Assembly: GCA_000004985.1 (NCBI GenBank)
Contig: GG738926.1
Source of the DNA: Naegleria gruberi
Lineage: Eukaryota
Direction: 5' to 3' (one strand)
DNA: 64,000 nucleotides
The position numbers and the translations under genes were made by a program. The notes beneath the pieces are model-generated. The model did no database searches and was not told the DNA's origin. It saw only the letters and a list, made by a program, of their open reading frames with translations. This document shows, in pieces, positions 13,796 through 46,698 of the stretch (position 1 is the first letter of the stretch; each line of letters begins with the position of its first letter).

Positions 13796-16700
13796 ATGAA
13801 ACCAAACACCAATGTGGATCATTATCAAAAAAAGGACCACATCAAGTCAATCACAACAAGAATGAAGAAAGTTTGTTTATCCAAGTCAACTTCATCCTCT
13901 ACCTCTGCCAAACTCAATTTTGCTATTCAAAAGCATAAGAAGAATGGTAATTCATCTTCAATCTTTAACAGATCTACTCCAATTTCCTTCTCCAACACTG
14001 ACTATATTCAACAATTATATCGTCAATATGGAACCACAAGAATCTCCTTGAAGGAATTTGAAAAGTTGCTTGTGGCCAACAGAGGTGAAATTGCCACGAG
14101 AATTTTACGTTCTGCCCACGAAATTGGTTGCAGAACTGTTTCGATTTATGCAAAACAAGATGCTTCCTCTGTGCATCGTTACAAAGCAGATGGTAAGTTG
14201 TTTTATTTGAATATGTTATTATAATAATTGATCGTATTTTGTAATAATATTTGATGAAATAATTGTAAAAATTCCGATCAATAGAAAGTTACTTGATCGG
14301 AAAGGACAAGGAATTAGGTCCAGTTGAAGCTTACTTGAGCATTGATGAGATTATTAAAATTGCCAAGGAGAATGGAGTTGATGCCATTCACCCTGGTTAT
14401 GGATTTCTTTCAGAGAGAGCTGATTTTGCACGTGCTTGTTCTGAAAATGGTATTCAATTCATTGGTCCAGTAAGTATTTCATGTGATTGCAATAATATAT
14501 TTAACAAATTGTTGGTAGACTGCTGATGTTGTTGAATCTTTTGGTGACAAGACAAGAGCTAGAAAGGTTGCTACTGATATTGGAATTCCTGTTGTTCCTG
14601 GAACTCCAACTGTAAGTATTCTATACTTCTTTAATCCTTAATCGATTGTAAATTATTCAAATAACTTATGTTCATTCCTATTTATAATGAACTTGTCCAA
14701 TTGACCAAAATATTAAGGCAGTAACAAGTATTGCAGAAGCCAAAACCTTCTGCTCCCAAATTTCCTTCCCAGTCATTTTGAAAGCTGCCATGGGAGGTGG
14801 TGGAAGAGGTATGAGAGTTGTTTCCAAAATGGAAGATTTAGAAGAAGCATTCCAAAGAGCTTCCTCTGAAGCTTTGAATGCTTTTGGTTCTTCAGCAATT
14901 TTCATTGAAAAGTTTGTTGAAAAGCCACGTCACATTGAGGTTCAAATCTTGGCCGATAAGTTTGGAAATGTTGTTCACTTGTACGAAAGAGATTGTTCAG
15001 TGCAAAGAAGACATCAAAAAGTTGTTGAAATTGCTCCAGCTCCACATTTGAATCCTCAAGTGAGAGAAAAGATTTTGGCTGATGCTGTTCGTCTTGCTCG
15101 CCACGTCAAGTATCAAAATGCAGGAACATTTGAGTTTTTAGTCGATTCTAATGGAAAGGATTATTACTTTATTGAAGTCAATCCACGTCTTCAAGTCGAA
15201 CACACTGTTACTGAAGAAATTACAGGTGTTGACATTGTCCGTTCTCAAATCTTAATTGCCGAAGGAAAGAGTTTGGACGAAATTGGTTTAAAACAAGAAA
15301 GCATTTCAGTCAGAGGTTCTGCCATTCAATGTAGAGTTACCACTGAAGATCCATTGAATGGATTCCAACCAGATACTGGTGTATTGGAAGCTTTCAGAAC
15401 TGGTGAAGGTATGGGTATTCGTTTGGATATTGGTTCTGGTTATGTTGGATCAAAGGTTTGTTTTTTTAACACTTTACAAAATATTTAATTCTTCTCGTTC
15501 TTTCACATCAATAGATTACACCATTCTATGATTCGCTCCTTGTCAAGGTCATTGGTAAAGGTCTCACTCATGAAGAAGCTTCCAACAAATTGAGACGTGC
15601 CTTGGCTGAATTCAGAATTCGTGGTGTCAAACACAATATTCCATTCTTGCAAAAGGTCTTATCTCATGAAAAGTTCTTAAATGGTTATGTTGACACCTCA
15701 TTCATTGATACTAACCCAGAACTCTTCCAATTCTCATCCAGTGGTAACAGAGCTCAAAAGCTCTTATCATTCTTGGCTGAAAATGTTGTCAATGGACCAA
15801 CTACATTACTCGTCACTGATTTGGAACCATCCAAGAAGAATCCAACTGTTCCAAAGACACCTACTGGTGCTCCTCCACGTGGCTGGAAACAAGTTCTCGA
15901 TGAACAAGGTCCTGAAGCATTTGCAAAGGCCATTCGTGATAGAAGTGAATTGCTCATTACTGACACAACCATGAGAGATGCTCACCAAAGTTTATTGGCA
16001 ACTCGTGTCAGAACCAGAGATTTAATGTCTATTGCTCCATATACTGCTCACGCCATGTCAGATTGTCTTTCATTGGAAATGGGAGGTGGTGCAACCTTTG
16101 ATGTTTGTTTGAACTTTTTGAGAGAATGTCCATTCGAAAGATTGGCTAAGTTGAGAGAAGCCATTCCTAACATTCCATTCCAAATGTTATTCAGAGGTGC
16201 AAATGCTGTTGGTTACACTGCTTATCCAGATAATGTTGTTTACAAATATTGTAAGAAAACAGTTGAACATGGTATGGACATTTTCAGAATCTTTGACTCA
16301 TTGAACTATGTTCCAAATATGGAGTTGGGTATTGATGCTGTTGGTAGCGCTGGTGGCGTTATTGAAGCAGCCATTAGTTATACAGGAGATGTCAGTGATC
16401 CTAAAAAGTCCAAGTATAATTTGGAATATTATTTGAAAGTTGCCAGATCACTTGTTGAAAAGGGAGTTCACATTTTGTGTATCAAAGACATGGCTGGTTT
16501 GTTGAGACCTAGTGCAGCAACCTTATTGATTGGTGCTTTGAGAAAGGAATTCCCACACATTCCAATTCATCTTCACACTCACGATACTGCAGGAACTGGT
16601 GTTGCTACTTTATTGGCAGCTGCTGAAGCTGGTGCTGATATTGTTGACGCTGCTATTGATAGCATGTCAGGATTGACTAGTCAACCTAGTTTGGGAGCTA

Positions 16701-34655: not shown

Positions 34656-34943
34656 TGAAAATGAGATGAATAAATAATCTATTGATTATTGTGAAAGTTT
34701 GTAACAAACCTTTCGTTTAGTTTTGGAAATAAATGGCGGAAAGGCTTCGATATCTTTTAGTAAAATCTGCCGAGCGTTTTGTTCATTTCAATCCAGATAA
34801 TTCAAATACCGGTATCCTCTTCCATCTTTATCATTTAATTCAGAAAGAAAAGTTTGGTTTGTGTTAAAGAATGCAACTGTCAGTTAGTAAGCTAATAGTT
34901 AATATTTATATTTACAAAAAGTTAATATTCATACTGAAATGTA

Positions 34944-35016
34944 GCCCGTCTAGCTCAGTCGGTAGAGCGCAAGGCTCTTAACCTTGTGGTCGTGGGTTCG
35001 ACCCCCACGGTGGGCG
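34944..35016 (+). tRNA. tRNA-Lys (anticodon CUU), copy A
   Basis: GCCCGTC-TA-GCTC-AGTCGGTA-GAGC-G-CAAGG-CTCTTAA-CCTTG-TGGTC-GTGGG-TTCGACC-CCCAC-GGTGGGC-G. Canonical eukaryotic tRNA-Lys(CUU) architecture. A T-rich tract follows (attctcttttttctctttttt). Confidence 0.9.
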
Positions 35017-35116
35017 ATTCTCTTTTTTCTCTTTTTTCTCTTTTGAAAAGAATAGTTTAATTTTTGGAGATATGAACTTTGCAAATATTGAGCTATTGAT
35101 ATGTAGCTTTTGAAAA

Positions 35117-41530: not shown

Positions 41531-42076
41531 CACTGGGAAGACTTCTCTATTGCCTATTATCTCTCAAAATGTAAAGACAAGAATGGGTTGAAAAATTAGC
41601 AACGAACTGAACTGAGACGAAGATCACTTGAAATACAATCAATTAATATGCAGGGTGTGTTCTCATTCAATTCGTTCAGAATAAGTTCATTCAATTAGAG
41701 AAGGTGATACTTCCAAAATCAAACATGGACAAGATAAGTTAGTGGATGAGTTATTGAATTCTATTAGTATGGAAAGGTTGAAATTTATCCTTGATTGCTT
41801 TTTTACAACACATCCCCAGTTGATTAACAAAGCATTTAGTGTTTTGCATGAATCAAAGATTGAGAAGGCAGTGCCAGGTTTCATCCTTCAATAAGAGAGA
41901 GACAGCTTTGGCAGAAAGCAATGGTTGCCAAGAAATATCAAATTCTTTACTCCAGAGCATATTTATTGTGAGACTGTTCATGGAATCAAAAAGAGATTTA
42001 ATCTTTAAGGGAATAAAAAGTTAACTTTACAAAAAAGATCTATCCAAATGAATAGTCGAAAAAAGTAAAAGAGAAT

Positions 42077-42149
42077 CGCCCACCGTGGGGGTCGAACCCA
42101 CGACCACAAGGTTAAGAGCCTTGCGCTCTACCGACTGAGCTAGACGGGC
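42077..42149 (-). tRNA. tRNA-Lys (anticodon CUU), copy B; identical in sequence to copy A
   Basis: The reverse complement equals the 73-nt copy A sequence. The same ~35-bp upstream element (atttacaaaaagttgatattgttaatgaaatgtag) and a T-rich downstream tract are present. Confidence 0.9.
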
Positions 42150-42508
42150 TACATTTCATTAACAATATCAACTTTTTGTAAATAAAAATACTATTTTGGG
42201 TGGTGGTAAATCTCCAATATTAAGACGTCACCTAACAATGGTTCATCAAATCAAGTTTTGGTGTGTATTGGTGGATCTAATCAATCAATTCTTTCGCACT
42301 TAATGTGGAGTTAAATTTTCAGTGATGAATTATTCCAACTCGTTGATGGTCTCATTCTTCTCTTGCTTGGAGTCCAATCGGAACAAATGATAGCATTAAA
42401 TCCGTCATTAGTTCCGTTCGCAATTGATGTCGCCAATCCAAGGGAGTTAATTGAAATGTTTCAAGGAACCTTAACAAAAAAAGCAACAACATCAAATTCT
42501 GTTGAAAT

Positions 42509-43312
42509 ATGCAAAATAGTCTGATGAAATATTTAATTGTAATCTTGCTATTAACAATAGCTTTCTCAACAAGAAAAGTTGATGCTCTCAACACAGCTGG
42601 CAAAGATGTATCCAAGTGTTCCTATCAGAATACTGTGAAATTGGGAACAACCATGACTCTGTACTGGAATGTCCTGAAGAATCCAAGTGATTCCACCAAC
42701 CACATTCTTGAATTTGGTTTAATATGCGTCAATGCAGGATATTGTGCTATTGGATTTGATCATCCTCTTGACAAGGGAATGAATTCCATTGACACCATGT
42801 TTGCCTACACAATTTCTGGAACTGCCTATTTGAAAGATGCCTATTGTAAGACCAAACATGTGTTTCCAACAATTGATGAATTGAGTGGAGGAACCAATGA
42901 TTATTTGGAAACCAATGGAGGAGTCATTGATGGTCAGTATCATTATAGATGGAGCAGAAAAGTCAATACTGGAGATTCCCAAGATGCCACTTTCAAGAAT
43001 TCAAATGTCTATGTCAGTTGGGCATATCACACCAGTTTAACTTCAATTGGTGCTACTCACTCTGAAGCTGGACAGAACGTTCAGGTTAATTTTCTTGCCA
43101 ACTCACCAACAGAAACTTACCTTTCTGGAATGATTTATAATTCTTCGTCTCCCTATCCTACTGATTCTTCTAATGATTCTGTGGTAATTGGTGTTGGACA
43201 CAGATATCATTTATATGCATTGGCCATTGCGGTCGGTTCAATGATCATTCTTGGCTTGATTTGTACCTACTTGGGTTCCATCCAATGTAGTTACTCACTT
43301 TTTACTTTATAG
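42509..43312 (+). CDS. Secreted/type-I membrane DOMON-like domain protein: signal peptide, DOMON-like β-sandwich, C-terminal TM helix. May form a single gene with the ferric reductase at 43365
   Basis: ATG at 42509. Signal peptide MQNSLMKYLIVILLLTIAFSTRKVDA. DOMON hallmark GYCAIGFDHPLDKGMNSIDTMFAY (compare GWVAxGFS..G.M.GSD.V). C-terminal helix LYALAIAVGSMIILGLICTYLGS. Only 52 nt separate it from the next ORF. Confidence 0.6.
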   Translation: MQNSLMKYLIVILLLTIAFSTRKVDALNTAGKDVSKCSYQNTVKLGTTMTLYWNVLKNPSDSTNHILEFGLICVNAGYCAIGFDHPLDKGMNSIDTMFAYTISGTAYLKDAYCKTKHVFPTIDELSGGTNDYLETNGGVIDGQYHYRWSRKVNTGDSQDATFKNSNVYVSWAYHTSLTSIGATHSEAGQNVQVNFLANSPTETYLSGMIYNSSSPYPTDSSNDSVVIGVGHRYHLYALAIAVGSMIILGLICTYLGSIQCSYSLFTL

Positions 43313-43364
43313 AAAGGTAACCAAGTTAATTCCATATGATTTTCTAGGAGTTTCCTACATTAAC

Positions 43365-44783
43365 ATGTTCCTAGATTTGACAGTTGGCGAAATGATTGTC
43401 ATTTCAGTCTATTGGGCATTGATGGTGATCTGGTTCAGTTATGGAGTTGTAAATCAAGCAGATCCTTTCATTCCAAGAAAGATTTCTTCTGGATATGTAC
43501 AAATGATCATTTTGAATTACATTTTCCTGTTCATTCCTGTAACTAGATATAATGTCTTGCAAGCATTATTCGGTATTTCATTTGAAAGGTCTTTGAAATT
43601 CCACAAGTGGCTTGGTTTTATGATTTTTGGATTTGCTACTGGACATGGTGTGACGGAATTCGTTTCATTCAGAGATAACATACCTTACATGTTCTCTGCA
43701 GAGGATCAATTCCCACTATTTGGAATAATTGCTTGGTTATCTCTTGGATTATTATTGCTCTTCTCTTTCAATCCTATTAGAAGAAAGCTCTATGAATTAT
43801 TCTTAGTTTTCCACATTCCTCTAACTTTGGTCACTGTCACCTTCTCAATCATTCATGGAGAAGGTTGGATTAATTTACTTCCTTATATGGGATTTTCAAT
43901 TATTTTAATGGTAATTGATTGGGCTTTGCGTTTAATTATTGGATTTGGAATTCCAACCAAGTTGACTCAGATATCATACGATGAGGATTCTGAAGTAACA
44001 ACCTGTGTATTTGAAAAAAGATTCTTGACATTCTTCCATGATCCAAACCATGCTCACTATGTTTTCGTCTACATTCCACAAGTTTCCATCTACCAACTTC
44101 ACCCAATGACAATCAGTTCCTCTGTAAAGCTTGAAAATGGAAATCATCAATTCATATGCCATATTAAACGAATGGAAGGAGGTACATGGGCAGCCAAGCT
44201 TGCTCAATTGGCTAAATCTAAGAAAATGGTTTCTGAATACTACGGAGTCAGAGTGGAAGGAGCATATGGCAACTTGTCAATTCCATTCTTTGCAAAGAAG
44301 AATGATCAGAAGAGAACCATTGTATTCATAGTTGCGGGAATTGGAGCAACTCCTTGTAATGCTATTTTGACAGCACTAGAAGATCCAAAATATAACGATC
44401 CAACTCCTTATAAGGTATATGTTAACTTTACAATGAGAAATGAGGCAACTTTGGCCCAAATGAGTAAGATTATGCAACAGAAACCAAATGTTGAATGCTC
44501 ATTCTATGTAACTGGTGTTAAATCTGTGAAAAAATCAATAGAGTTAATGGAGAAGGGTCAGGATAATAGCGAAGACAAGAGATTTGTCAGAGGATCAAGA
44601 CCTAACTATGTGGAATATTTGGAAAAGATCAAATCTCAAATTATTCAATCAAAATCACTTGAATATGTTTCTGTTTTTGCTTGTGGTCCATCTAAAATGA
44701 TGAATGCAGTGCATAATGCTGTGTGGACATGCAGTGATTCATCTTGCCGATTCGAGTTGCACAAAGAAGAATTTGAATTTTAA
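43365..44783 (+). CDS. Ferric-reductase / NADPH-oxidase (FRE/NOX) family transmembrane oxidoreductase
   Basis: Ferric-reductase TM domain with bis-heme His pairs (FHKWLGFMIFGFATGHG … LFLVFHIPLTLVTVTFSIIHG). FAD-binding HPMTISS (HPFT-type). NAD(P)H-binding IVFIVAGIGATP. C-terminal CGPSKMM. ATG at 43365, stop at 44783. Confidence 0.8.
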   Translation: MFLDLTVGEMIVISVYWALMVIWFSYGVVNQADPFIPRKISSGYVQMIILNYIFLFIPVTRYNVLQALFGISFERSLKFHKWLGFMIFGFATGHGVTEFVSFRDNIPYMFSAEDQFPLFGIIAWLSLGLLLLFSFNPIRRKLYELFLVFHIPLTLVTVTFSIIHGEGWINLLPYMGFSIILMVIDWALRLIIGFGIPTKLTQISYDEDSEVTTCVFEKRFLTFFHDPNHAHYVFVYIPQVSIYQLHPMTISSSVKLENGNHQFICHIKRMEGGTWAAKLAQLAKSKKMVSEYYGVRVEGAYGNLSIPFFAKKNDQKRTIVFIVAGIGATPCNAILTALEDPKYNDPTPYKVYVNFTMRNEATLAQMSKIMQQKPNVECSFYVTGVKSVKKSIELMEKGQDNSEDKRFVRGSRPNYVEYLEKIKSQIIQSKSLEYVSVFACGPSKMMNAVHNAVWTCSDSSCRFELHKEEFEF

Positions 44784-44894
44784 AATTGGTTTTCTTTTTA
44801 ATAAAATCACCAACATCAACGTTATGAGTACATTCCTTCAAAACAAAGCAAACAGTGTGTTAGTACAATCATATTCTAAAGCCAAAAGATAAAT

Positions 44895-44967
44895 CGCCCA
44901 CTGTGGGGGTCGAACCCACGACCACAAGGTTAAGAGCCTTGCGCTCTACCGACTGAGCTAGACGGGC
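44895..44967 (-). tRNA. tRNA-Lys (anticodon CUU), copy C; single-base variant in the 3' acceptor strand (C to T on the + strand, giving a 7C·66A mismatch)
   Basis: The reverse complement equals copy A except for one substitution (cactgtggg versus caccgtggg on the + strand). A related upstream element (aaaagttgatattcaatgtgaaaggtag) is present. Confidence 0.8.
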
Positions 44968-45051
44968 TACCTTTCACATTGAATATCAACTTTTTATATC
45001 CTAAAACTTGAGTTTTTGTAATATTTTGTTTTTTATTTTATTATCACATCA

Positions 45052-46698
45052 CTAATACAATCGGATAAATGGTTTTGGTTCTTCGTAATAAACAATTCTA
45101 TAAGGATAATCTCTCTTATAATAAGTGTTAGAACGGAATTCAATTGGATTAACTTCAACATTTGGAAAATGTGGTTGGAATAATCTTTCAATAATTGCTC
45201 TGTTGTCATTTACATTAACATAGTCCAATTTTGGGAATTTCAGACCGTGTACAGAGCACACATCAGCTGGAAAGTCCCTTTCTAATAAAACAAAATCAAA
45301 AGTAACTTTCTTGACGCATTGTGGAATTCTATAAATGACATCCATCACAGCCTTTGGTTTAAGCTTGTCATTCTCCAATTCTCTTTCCAAATGAGGAGAA
45401 AATAGAACCAATTCTTCAACGTTACTGCAATTCTTCTCAAAAAACTTGTTTAGTTGAACTTCGTCCTTAAACCAAGTATACAATGGAATGTGCAAGACTT
45501 TGACATTTTTCAAAAATCTCTTTTCATAACTGATATATTCATGGTAGACATCCTTAATCCAAACTACAGGATTTGGATCAAAATGGAAAGCATATTCAGT
45601 AATGGCAACCCTCTTGTCCATAACATTTTCAGAATAGAAATCGAATAATGAAGATTTGATGACTTGGTCAAAGATGTGATAAGGTTGTAATGGTTTTTCG
45701 GATTTTCCCTTGGTGGAGTTGAATGCATTCAAGTGTGAATCGATATTGTTGATAAAGTTTTCATAGGAAATGTCAAGATAATCACGTCTGGATAAACTTT
45801 TAGCTGCCAAATGTCTCCACAAACGGCAGGTGGAGGAAACTTGCATGACTGAATAAATTGGAAGGTAGGAAAAGACTGCATAGATGATTTCATCATTGAT
45901 CAATTTGTAGAACATCTTGTTGACCTTGGTTTCATCCTTGAGCAGATCTTGATTCATCTTTAAGATTCTTCCAGTTTCTTCTTGTTTATCCAACTTGTAA
46001 GCATTCTCCAAATCGTTAAGGGATTGCTCACTTGCACTATTCATGAACAAGTAGGAAGATCCTCTCATATAATAACAATAGGCAACAGCTTTAGAATCAG
46101 CAGCTAGATAAATGTCATCAATGATTTTAACACATTCTGCGTATTGGCAGGAATTGTAAAGTGAAACTGCAATGTTGAAATCCAACTCTTCAGCACTGAT
46201 TAGTGAACCAGTGGATGGTGCCTTGGAGAAGAAACTAGACCAAACCTTCTCATAGATTAGTTTGTTTTGTTCACAGCATGCATTAACTTTAGTTTCAATT
46301 TCGGATTTCAAGTGAGCATGTGTTGAATCTTGCAACAAGTCTCTAGTCCTGATCAATAGTTTAGTAGCTTGATCAAAATCACATGCAATAGCATGACAAC
46401 ATGCCTCCAAATATGAGAAAACATAAACATTTCCCACACTTTCGTCCATTTCCAAAGCCAATTCCATTGATCTTTTAGCTTCCTTTTCATGAGCAGCTTG
46501 TACTTCCAGGAATGCTCTCTGTACATACAAGATTGCTTTCACCTTCTTGTCACTTGCCTTCTTCAAATCTTCTTCGATTGATTGCATCGTTTTGCTCTCT
46601 CTATAATTTCTCAACATGCCCAAAAGTGATGATTTGGCCACGAGTGGACAACCAGTATAATGAAGAAAGAGTGAACTGAATGGAGTGTTTGCAACCAT
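45052..46698 (-). CDS. F-box protein (548 aa) with an N-terminal TPR/Sel1-like helical region and a C-terminal repeat region
   Basis: ATG at 46698 (MVANTPF). F-box motif DEIIYAVFSYLPIYSVMQVSSTCRLWRHLAAKS. Helical-repeat N-terminus. Single exon. Confidence 0.7.
   Translation of the reverse strand: MVANTPFSSLFLHYTGCPLVAKSSLLGMLRNYRESKTMQSIEEDLKKASDKKVKAILYVQRAFLEVQAAHEKEAKRSMELALEMDESVGNVYVFSYLEACCHAIACDFDQATKLLIRTRDLLQDSTHAHLKSEIETKVNACCEQNKLIYEKVWSSFFSKAPSTGSLISAEELDFNIAVSLYNSCQYAECVKIIDDIYLAADSKAVAYCYYMRGSSYLFMNSASEQSLNDLENAYKLDKQEETGRILKMNQDLLKDETKVNKMFYKLINDEIIYAVFSYLPIYSVMQVSSTCRLWRHLAAKSLSRRDYLDISYENFINNIDSHLNAFNSTKGKSEKPLQPYHIFDQVIKSSLFDFYSENVMDKRVAITEYAFHFDPNPVVWIKDVYHEYISYEKRFLKNVKVLHIPLYTWFKDEVQLNKFFEKNCSNVEELVLFSPHLERELENDKLKPKAVMDVIYRIPQCVKKVTFDFVLLERDFPADVCSVHGLKFPKLDYVNVNDNRAIIERLFQPHFPNVEVNPIEFRSNTYYKRDYPYRIVYYEEPKPFIRLY

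Follow-up and report, generated by a model that had tools for sequence, protein, structure and literature searches.

In the 64,000-nucleotide (nt) stretch of Naegleria gruberi DNA analysed here (contig GG738926.1 of GenBank assembly GCA_000004985.1, one strand from 5' to 3', referred to below as the window), the region 42509-44783 very probably represents a single intronless gene for a DOMON-bearing ferric reductase (FRE), which a frame shift in the assembly makes appear as two open reading frames (ORFs). Both ORFs are on the plus strand of this AT-rich window (GC 33%). ORF1 (42509-43312, 267 amino acids [aa]) and ORF2 (43365-44783, 472 aa) are in different frames and are separated by a gap of 52 nt. 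Pfam analysis identified DOMON (PF03351) at residues 48-174 of ORF1, with an E-value of 3.8e-18 and a score of 66.3 bits against a cut-off of 32.7, and in ORF2 it identified Ferric_reduct (PF01794, E 8.8e-22), FAD_binding_8 (PF08022, E 5.6e-06) and NAD_binding_6 (PF08030, E 3e-10), all above their cut-offs. These are the domains that an initial annotation, made from the letters of the DNA, had expected from such a scan. It had described ORF1 as carrying a signal peptide, a DOMON-type motif (GYCAIGFDHPLDKGMNSIDTMFAY, aa 77-100) and a terminal transmembrane (TM) helix, all of which are present, with helices at aa 4-18 and 233-255 in the AlphaFold2 models. The 52-nt spacing and the complete module with haem-binding His pairs and FAD and NADPH motifs that it described downstream were confirmed as well. 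The same annotation suggested that the two ORFs encode one fusion protein joined by a spliced intron. Our results support one protein, not through an intron but across a +1 frame shift.

The frame of ORF1 agrees with that of its homologues through ...ICTYLGS (43279), and from the residues SN (43281) onward it is the frame of ORF2 that agrees with them. The ORF2 frame is open upstream of its ATG as far as 43260 and reads ...SNVVTHFLLYRKVTKLIPYDFLGVSYIN-MFLDLTVGE. The 28-residue peptide encoded at 43281-43364 is 75% identical to the N. gruberi paralogue P0003 (NAEGRDRAFT_69148, E 2.5e-8) and 68% identical to the paralogue P0002 (NAEGRDRAFT_69147, E 3.4e-8), the E-values being calculated for a nominal database size of 1e8 residues. 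P0002 (...TYLPTAFKSNIITHFLFYRKISKVIPYDFPLVSYVNQFLDLTIGE) and P0003 (...KSNIFTHFLLYRKVSKVIPYDFPLVSYVNQFLDLTLGE) both contain this linker within an unbroken protein sequence, where it connects the additional membrane helix to helix 1 of the reductase core. A recognisably similar linker is found in N. lovaniensis, N. fowleri, Willaertia magna and one metagenome relative. The other two frames of 43281-43364 contain 3-4 stops and gave no match. Read in the frame of ORF2, both the gap and the final codons of ORF1 are coding, and the two halves are therefore split by a +1 frame shift near 43280, which results in a false stop at 43310 and in the look of two ORFs. Deletion of base 43280 gives a repaired protein of 757 aa, and tblastn of this protein on the window returned two abutting segments of 100% identity, in frames 2 and 3. 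The N-terminus of ORF1 can also be aligned with that of P0002 (NSLMMLVALISIMLLLGFSQYVEA). The features of the locus are as follows.

42509-42586, plus strand: start codon and predicted signal peptide (MQNSLMKYLIVILLLTIAFSTRKVDA), with a hydrophobic helix at aa 4-18 in the AlphaFold2 models and a putative cleavage site.
42650-43030, plus strand: DOMON domain, aa 48-174 by Pfam, with the beta-sandwich reaching to about aa 195.
42779-42781, plus strand: codon of Met91, candidate axial haem ligand of the DOMON (putative role).
43058-43060, plus strand: codon of His184, candidate second axial haem ligand of the DOMON (putative role).
43205-43273, plus strand: extra transmembrane helix TM0 (aa 233-255, the AlphaFold2 helix), running from the outside to the cytosol and preceding the reductase core.
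43277-43283, plus strand: site of the +1 frame shift, GGT TCC A TCC AAT, with the switch of frame in the homology near 43280.
43281-43364, plus strand: cytosolic linker SNVVTHFLLYRKVTKLIPYDFLGVSYIN in the frame of ORF2, overlapping the tail of ORF1 and the entire 52-nt gap.
43383-43949, plus strand: six-helix ferric-reductase transmembrane core with two haem-b sites (PF01794).
44052-44273, plus strand: FAD-binding domain (PF08022), including HPMTIS, of which H531, P532 and T/S534 are conserved.
44316-44783, plus strand: NADPH-binding domain (PF08030), with GIGATP and CGP, to the stop codon at 44781-44783.
44800-44805, plus strand: first AATAAA 3' of the locus, 17 nt beyond the ORF2 stop, its use as a signal by Naegleria being assumed.

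The repaired protein was searched against 1.84 billion representative proteins, and the counts of conservation given here rest on an alignment of 18 members taken from the hits of this search. DOMON, Ferric_reduct and NAD_binding_6 are present in 18/18 aligned members, and each of the 17 relatives examined carries both parts in one protein. Many of the alignments run unbroken across the junction, such as those of P0008 (residues 41-757 of the repaired protein), P0009 (33-756), P0010 (50-756), P0011 (49-756) and P0012 (9-756). A hydrophobic helix is found at the alignment position of TM0 in all 18 members. The named sources include Willaertia magna, N. fowleri, N. lovaniensis and further N. gruberi paralogues, and transcriptomes contributed sequences from the rhizarian Leptophrys vorax and the apusomonad Nutomonas longa. 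The gene of N. fowleri P0005 is one ORF of 3021 nt, in the GenBank assembly and also in an independent Logan assembly, and that of the metagenome relative P0006 is one ORF of 2112 nt. In UniProt, the Naegleria orthologues bear the name 'DOMON domain-containing protein'. The orthologues of the two other Naegleria species, N. fowleri FDP41_002021 (1006 aa) and N. lovaniensis P0004 (1007 aa), have two tandem DOMON domains, each with its own Met and His, which, judged from these residues, implies a possible four-haem chain.

Besides the shift, the 2.27-kb frame is undamaged, and it has the family residue at every family-invariant position. Such an otherwise intact frame would fit an error in base calling or assembly, damage to one of the alleles or an inactivation that happened very recently. 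Between a base-calling or assembly error or one broken allele on the one hand and a genuine, very recent inactivating lesion on the other, we consider the chances roughly even. The site itself fits with one inserted base, with a tandem duplication of TCCA or with an AAA codon (Lys) that has lost 2 nt; Lys is the residue found here in the N. gruberi paralogues. Exact-sequence look-ups of ORF1, ORF2, P0001 (the closest database match, discussed below) and P0002 in public assemblies gave no match and therefore no independent N. gruberi copy, and a metagenome scan for the junction, in which the shift site could hold 0-8 bases (TACTTGGGTTCC N{0,8} AATGTAGTTACTCAC), also gave no match. We also rejected programmed +1 ribosomal frameshifting, as TCC-A-TCC would allow no re-pairing of the P-site tRNA and no relative would need it. 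We give very little credence to the idea that the frame shift is genuine and the locus is nevertheless in use, either as a split pair acting in trans or through intronisation via a cryptic GT..AG pair. If true, it would amount to a natural experiment that asks whether the DOMON haem domain needs a covalent link to the reductase.

With a genuine shift, the split pair would consist of a membrane-anchored DOMON cytochrome (ORF1, 267 aa) and a stand-alone FRE starting at the ATG at 43365, acting in trans. Both ORFs are otherwise intact, and DOMON-only haem proteins do exist, e.g., plant AIR12 (mentioned in PMC10784544). The ATG of ORF2 sits just ahead of TM1 and is peculiar to this gene, as the relatives have Gln, Ala, Pro, Ile or Leu there. 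It is probably coincidental, yet it makes ORF2 resemble a complete stand-alone gene. We find such a pair very unlikely, because the ORFs are only 52 nt apart, leaving no obvious space for a promoter, and no split form was found among the relatives examined. Moreover, the linker upstream of the ORF2 ATG is still intact, which fits a very recent shift and not an adapted split. In eukaryotes, reinitiation after an ORF of 800 nt is inefficient, which also counts against two proteins. A poly(A) site between 43312 and 43365 had been named in the initial annotation as the mark of separate transcripts. No AATAAA or ATTAAA was found by motif scan in 42396-44162 and hence none in the gap (43313-43364). 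The absence of such a signal between the ORFs, with the first AATAAA following ORF2, gives weak support to a single transcription unit.

The splice proposed in the initial annotation would remove an 88-nt intron (43287-43374, GTAGTT...CCTAG) and result in a 728-aa DOMON-FRE fusion reading ...LGSIQ-Y-LTVGEM... across the junction. It is true that GT at 43287 and AG at 43373-43374 join the ORFs in frame and without a stop, that TM0 is retained and that 88 nt is within the 41-92 nt range of the candidate introns in the window. Such a join is not distinctive, however, as 58 other GT..AG pairs near the junction do likewise, and since 59 pairs in all achieve it, the in-frame join is no evidence for a splice. 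Joining 43286 to 43375 would delete 28 codons that are conserved as coding in paralogues and orthologues, including the linker that is so similar to those of P0003 and P0002, and it would leave TM0 and TM1 only about 10 residues apart. The structures of the orthologous genes, which had been proposed as a check, do not show an intron here either, as those of N. fowleri and the metagenome relative are uninterrupted ORFs. Finally, the donor GTAGTT differs from GTAAGT at +4 and +5. The 64-kb window contains 25 GTAAGT hexamers, 15 of which bridge two long open frames, a 22-fold enrichment; this consensus was estimated from the window itself, by the adjacency of ORFs and not from cDNA. Bridging sites are found, for example, at 38425-38365, 37161-37121 and 32802-32751 on the minus strand and at 14193, 16920, 22854, 50303, 51105 and 52349 on the plus strand. 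Three GTAAGT introns inspected by eye are 41, 52 and 61 nt long and end in YAG or TTAG. This suggests that the 5' splice-site consensus of the genome is very strict and that introns are short, about 40-90 nt. We consider the 88-nt intron highly improbable. Introns of less than 30 nt, such as 43263-43290 (28 nt), which lie outside the 59 pairs counted, would likewise bring back the frame but are implausible, with a non-consensus donor and a length well under the local minimum of 41 nt.

A different intron is present in the deposited gene model. The closest database match to the joined ORFs is P0001 (XP_002669473.1, identical to EFC36729.1, NAEGRDRAFT_54208 and UniProt D2W2K5), which is 100% identical over the aligned stretches. 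This model starts at M49, is 665 aa long and joins the DOMON to the linker by removal of a 133-nt intron (43184-43316, GTAATT...GAAAG). Its junction, where ...SNDSVV meets TKLIPYDF..., matches the pair 43184/43316. The join is in frame and keeps most of the linker. On the other side, it deletes TM0, which is kept by 17/17 relatives, it lacks the signal peptide, which aligns with that of P0002, and its donor is not GTAAGT. Without the signal peptide and TM0, the DOMON would end up facing the cytosol instead of the outer haem. The 133-nt intron looks like an automated modelling device that bridges the frame shift, and we regard its being spliced in the cell as extremely improbable. The models of the two paralogues P0002 and P0003, which are adjacent (tandem) genes on another N. 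gruberi scaffold, also appear faulty. In P0002, about 85 aa of the FAD-binding region are missing (HPMTI is followed directly by KDPKRT), and P0003 begins in the middle of the DOMON. This may reflect a systematic error in how the DOMON-FRE genes of N. gruberi were modelled, or lesions in several of the paralogues.

In the repaired protein, all of the motifs expected of a ferric reductase are present and are invariant or nearly so among the 18 members: the four haem histidines, the HPxT[IV]S motif for FAD, GIGxTP and CGP. The histidines of the core, H365/H379 and H435/H449 (H80/H94 and H150/H164 in ORF2 numbering), are invariant (18/18), as are G610, G612 and T614 of the NADPH domain, and CGP is nearly invariant. 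The residue at the position of NOX2 His-119 (residue 383, four after the outer-haem His of TM3) is Glu, and His occurs there in 0/18 members. Because this His is absent, the core is of the FRE type and not of the NADPH oxidase (NOX) type. In the DOMON, Met91 is Met in 15/18 members, His in 2 and displaced by two columns in 1, and His184 is His in 16/18, with a His one column away in the remaining two.

AlphaFold2 gave a full-length model of the repaired protein with a mean pLDDT (predicted local distance difference test) of 79.6 and a pTM (predicted template modelling score) of 0.66, in which the linker forms helices at 260-267 and 281-288 (pLDDT 75-85). The model of the DOMON, with a pLDDT of 83.5 overall and 90-96 inside the domain, has a beta-sandwich fold of the type seen in DOMON and in the cytochrome of cellobiose dehydrogenase (CDH). 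In Foldseek searches, the TM and dehydrogenase parts matched NOX2 (8wej_B, E 2.8e-19), NOX5 (E 3.2e-18) and DUOX1, and the NADPH region matched crystal structures of the NOX5 dehydrogenase domain. A single-sequence search of the PDB with ORF1 resulted only in a chance match.

The gene thus repaired would encode a protein of about 757 aa, consisting of a signal peptide, an extracellular DOMON, TM0, a conserved linker of about 35 aa in the cytosol, the six-helix core with two haems and the FAD and NADPH domains, in this order. The signal peptide would place the DOMON outside, TM0 would lead the chain back into the cell and the core would end on the cytosolic side with the FAD and NADPH domains. 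From the conserved residues and by analogy with related reductases, we infer haem binding by the DOMON, a path for the electrons and a substrate. Cytosolic NADPH would reduce FAD, from which electrons would pass to the inner haem (H365/H435) and on to the outer haem (H379/H449). They would then reach a third haem b, held on the outer face by Met91 and His184 of the DOMON, and finally an acceptor outside the cell, for which chelates of Fe(III) or Cu(II) are the likeliest candidates. Such a three-haem relay had been put forward in the initial annotation and appears reasonable, because the domain retains a Met/His pair, as would be expected if it were a haem-b DOMON. The proposed acceptor is based on the analogy with the FRE/FRO and DOMON-cytochrome b561 (CYBDOM) proteins and on the ferric reductase activity of N. 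fowleri, where extracellular ferric reductase activity has been measured (PMC7326272).

Several points weigh against this reading. The frame shift stands in the sequence as given, and the full-length functional product is only predicted here. The nearest sequence relative of the DOMON in the PDB, found by profile search, is dopamine beta-hydroxylase (DBH; E 3.8e-11), whose DOMON carries Glu at the Met position and is no cytochrome. The equivalence of Met91 and His184 to the haem ligands of CDH is drawn by analogy at the sequence level and not from a structural superposition, and ferric reduction by DOMON-FRE proteins is itself a prediction.

The gene has a particular setting in the window. Three copies of tRNA-Lys(CTT) are present, at 42074-42180 and 44892-44998 on the minus strand and at 34900-35026 on the plus strand, as repeat units of 107-127 nt that include about 35 nt of flank and are 93-95% identical. 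Two of these units, in direct orientation and 2818 nt apart, exactly flank the DOMON-FRE gene, and such direct repeats could mediate its loss or duplication. Just past the downstream tRNA-Lys, an ORF of 548 aa (45052-46698, minus strand) converges on the 3' end of the gene.

The DOMON-FRE architecture, and N. gruberi D2W2K5 itself, were already described in 2013 by Zhang, Krause, Xenarios, Soldati and Boeckmann (PLoS One 8:e58126; PMC3591440), who reported DOMON-bearing ferric reductases of the eFRE group as domain model M10. In row 174 of their supplementary table (file 1), D2W2K5_NAEGR is listed as 'clade2, 1 DOMON, 1 TM'. The eFRE clade with DOMON includes seven N. gruberi paralogues and homologues from Phytophthora and Albugo, and it was placed in the metal-reductase (eFRE) group and not with NOX, for which NOX2 His-119 is the criterion (PMC3591440). 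The architecture found here is identical to M10, with a DOMON, an extra TM helix, a four-His ferric reductase domain (FRD) and FAD and NADPH domains. The only differences are the one-base break of the frame in the assembly and the published and database protein, which at 665 aa is mis-spliced and lacks the signal peptide and TM0. As a discovery, our finding therefore carries little weight. What it adds is a flag on the frame shift and a corrected gene model, which starts at 42509 with a signal peptide, retains TM0 and the linker, contains no intron and has a one-base shift near 43280. With this model the topology becomes sensible, with the DOMON outside and beside the outer haem.

Compared with NOX2, NOX5 and DUOX, the protein has a common fold of the TM and dehydrogenase domains, the four haem His and the FAD and NADPH motifs, but it lacks the equivalent of His-119 and carries an extracellular DOMON. 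The cytochrome domain of CDH and pyranose dehydrogenase, a haem-b domain with a DOMON-like fold, has only 10-14% sequence identity to the DOMON described here, and it is joined to a soluble flavo- or quino-dehydrogenase, whereas the DOMON is attached to a reductase of the membrane. The CYBDOM proteins (Arabidopsis HYP1/CRR and animal FRRS1/SDR2) likewise have an extracellular PF03351 DOMON with Met and His beside a transmembrane carrier with two haems. For Arabidopsis HYP1, a third haem has been proposed, bound by M90 and H174 at a distance of about 21 Å from the outer haem of b561, so that three haems would conduct electrons to Fe(III)/Cu(II) in the apoplast, and Met91 and His184 may be considered analogous to these residues and to the Met and H176 of the CDH cytochrome (PMC10784544). 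The core of the CYBDOM proteins is cytochrome b561, whereas here it is a six-helix FRD with its own FAD/NADPH dehydrogenase, and for this reason the donor would be NADPH rather than ascorbate. No b561 family was found among the Pfam matches of the ORFs or of the 18 members, so the protein is not a CYBDOM. The DOMON-FRE family is a candidate for the extracellular ferric reductase activity of N. fowleri and, by analogy, it would do with NADPH what the CYBDOM reductases do with ascorbate.

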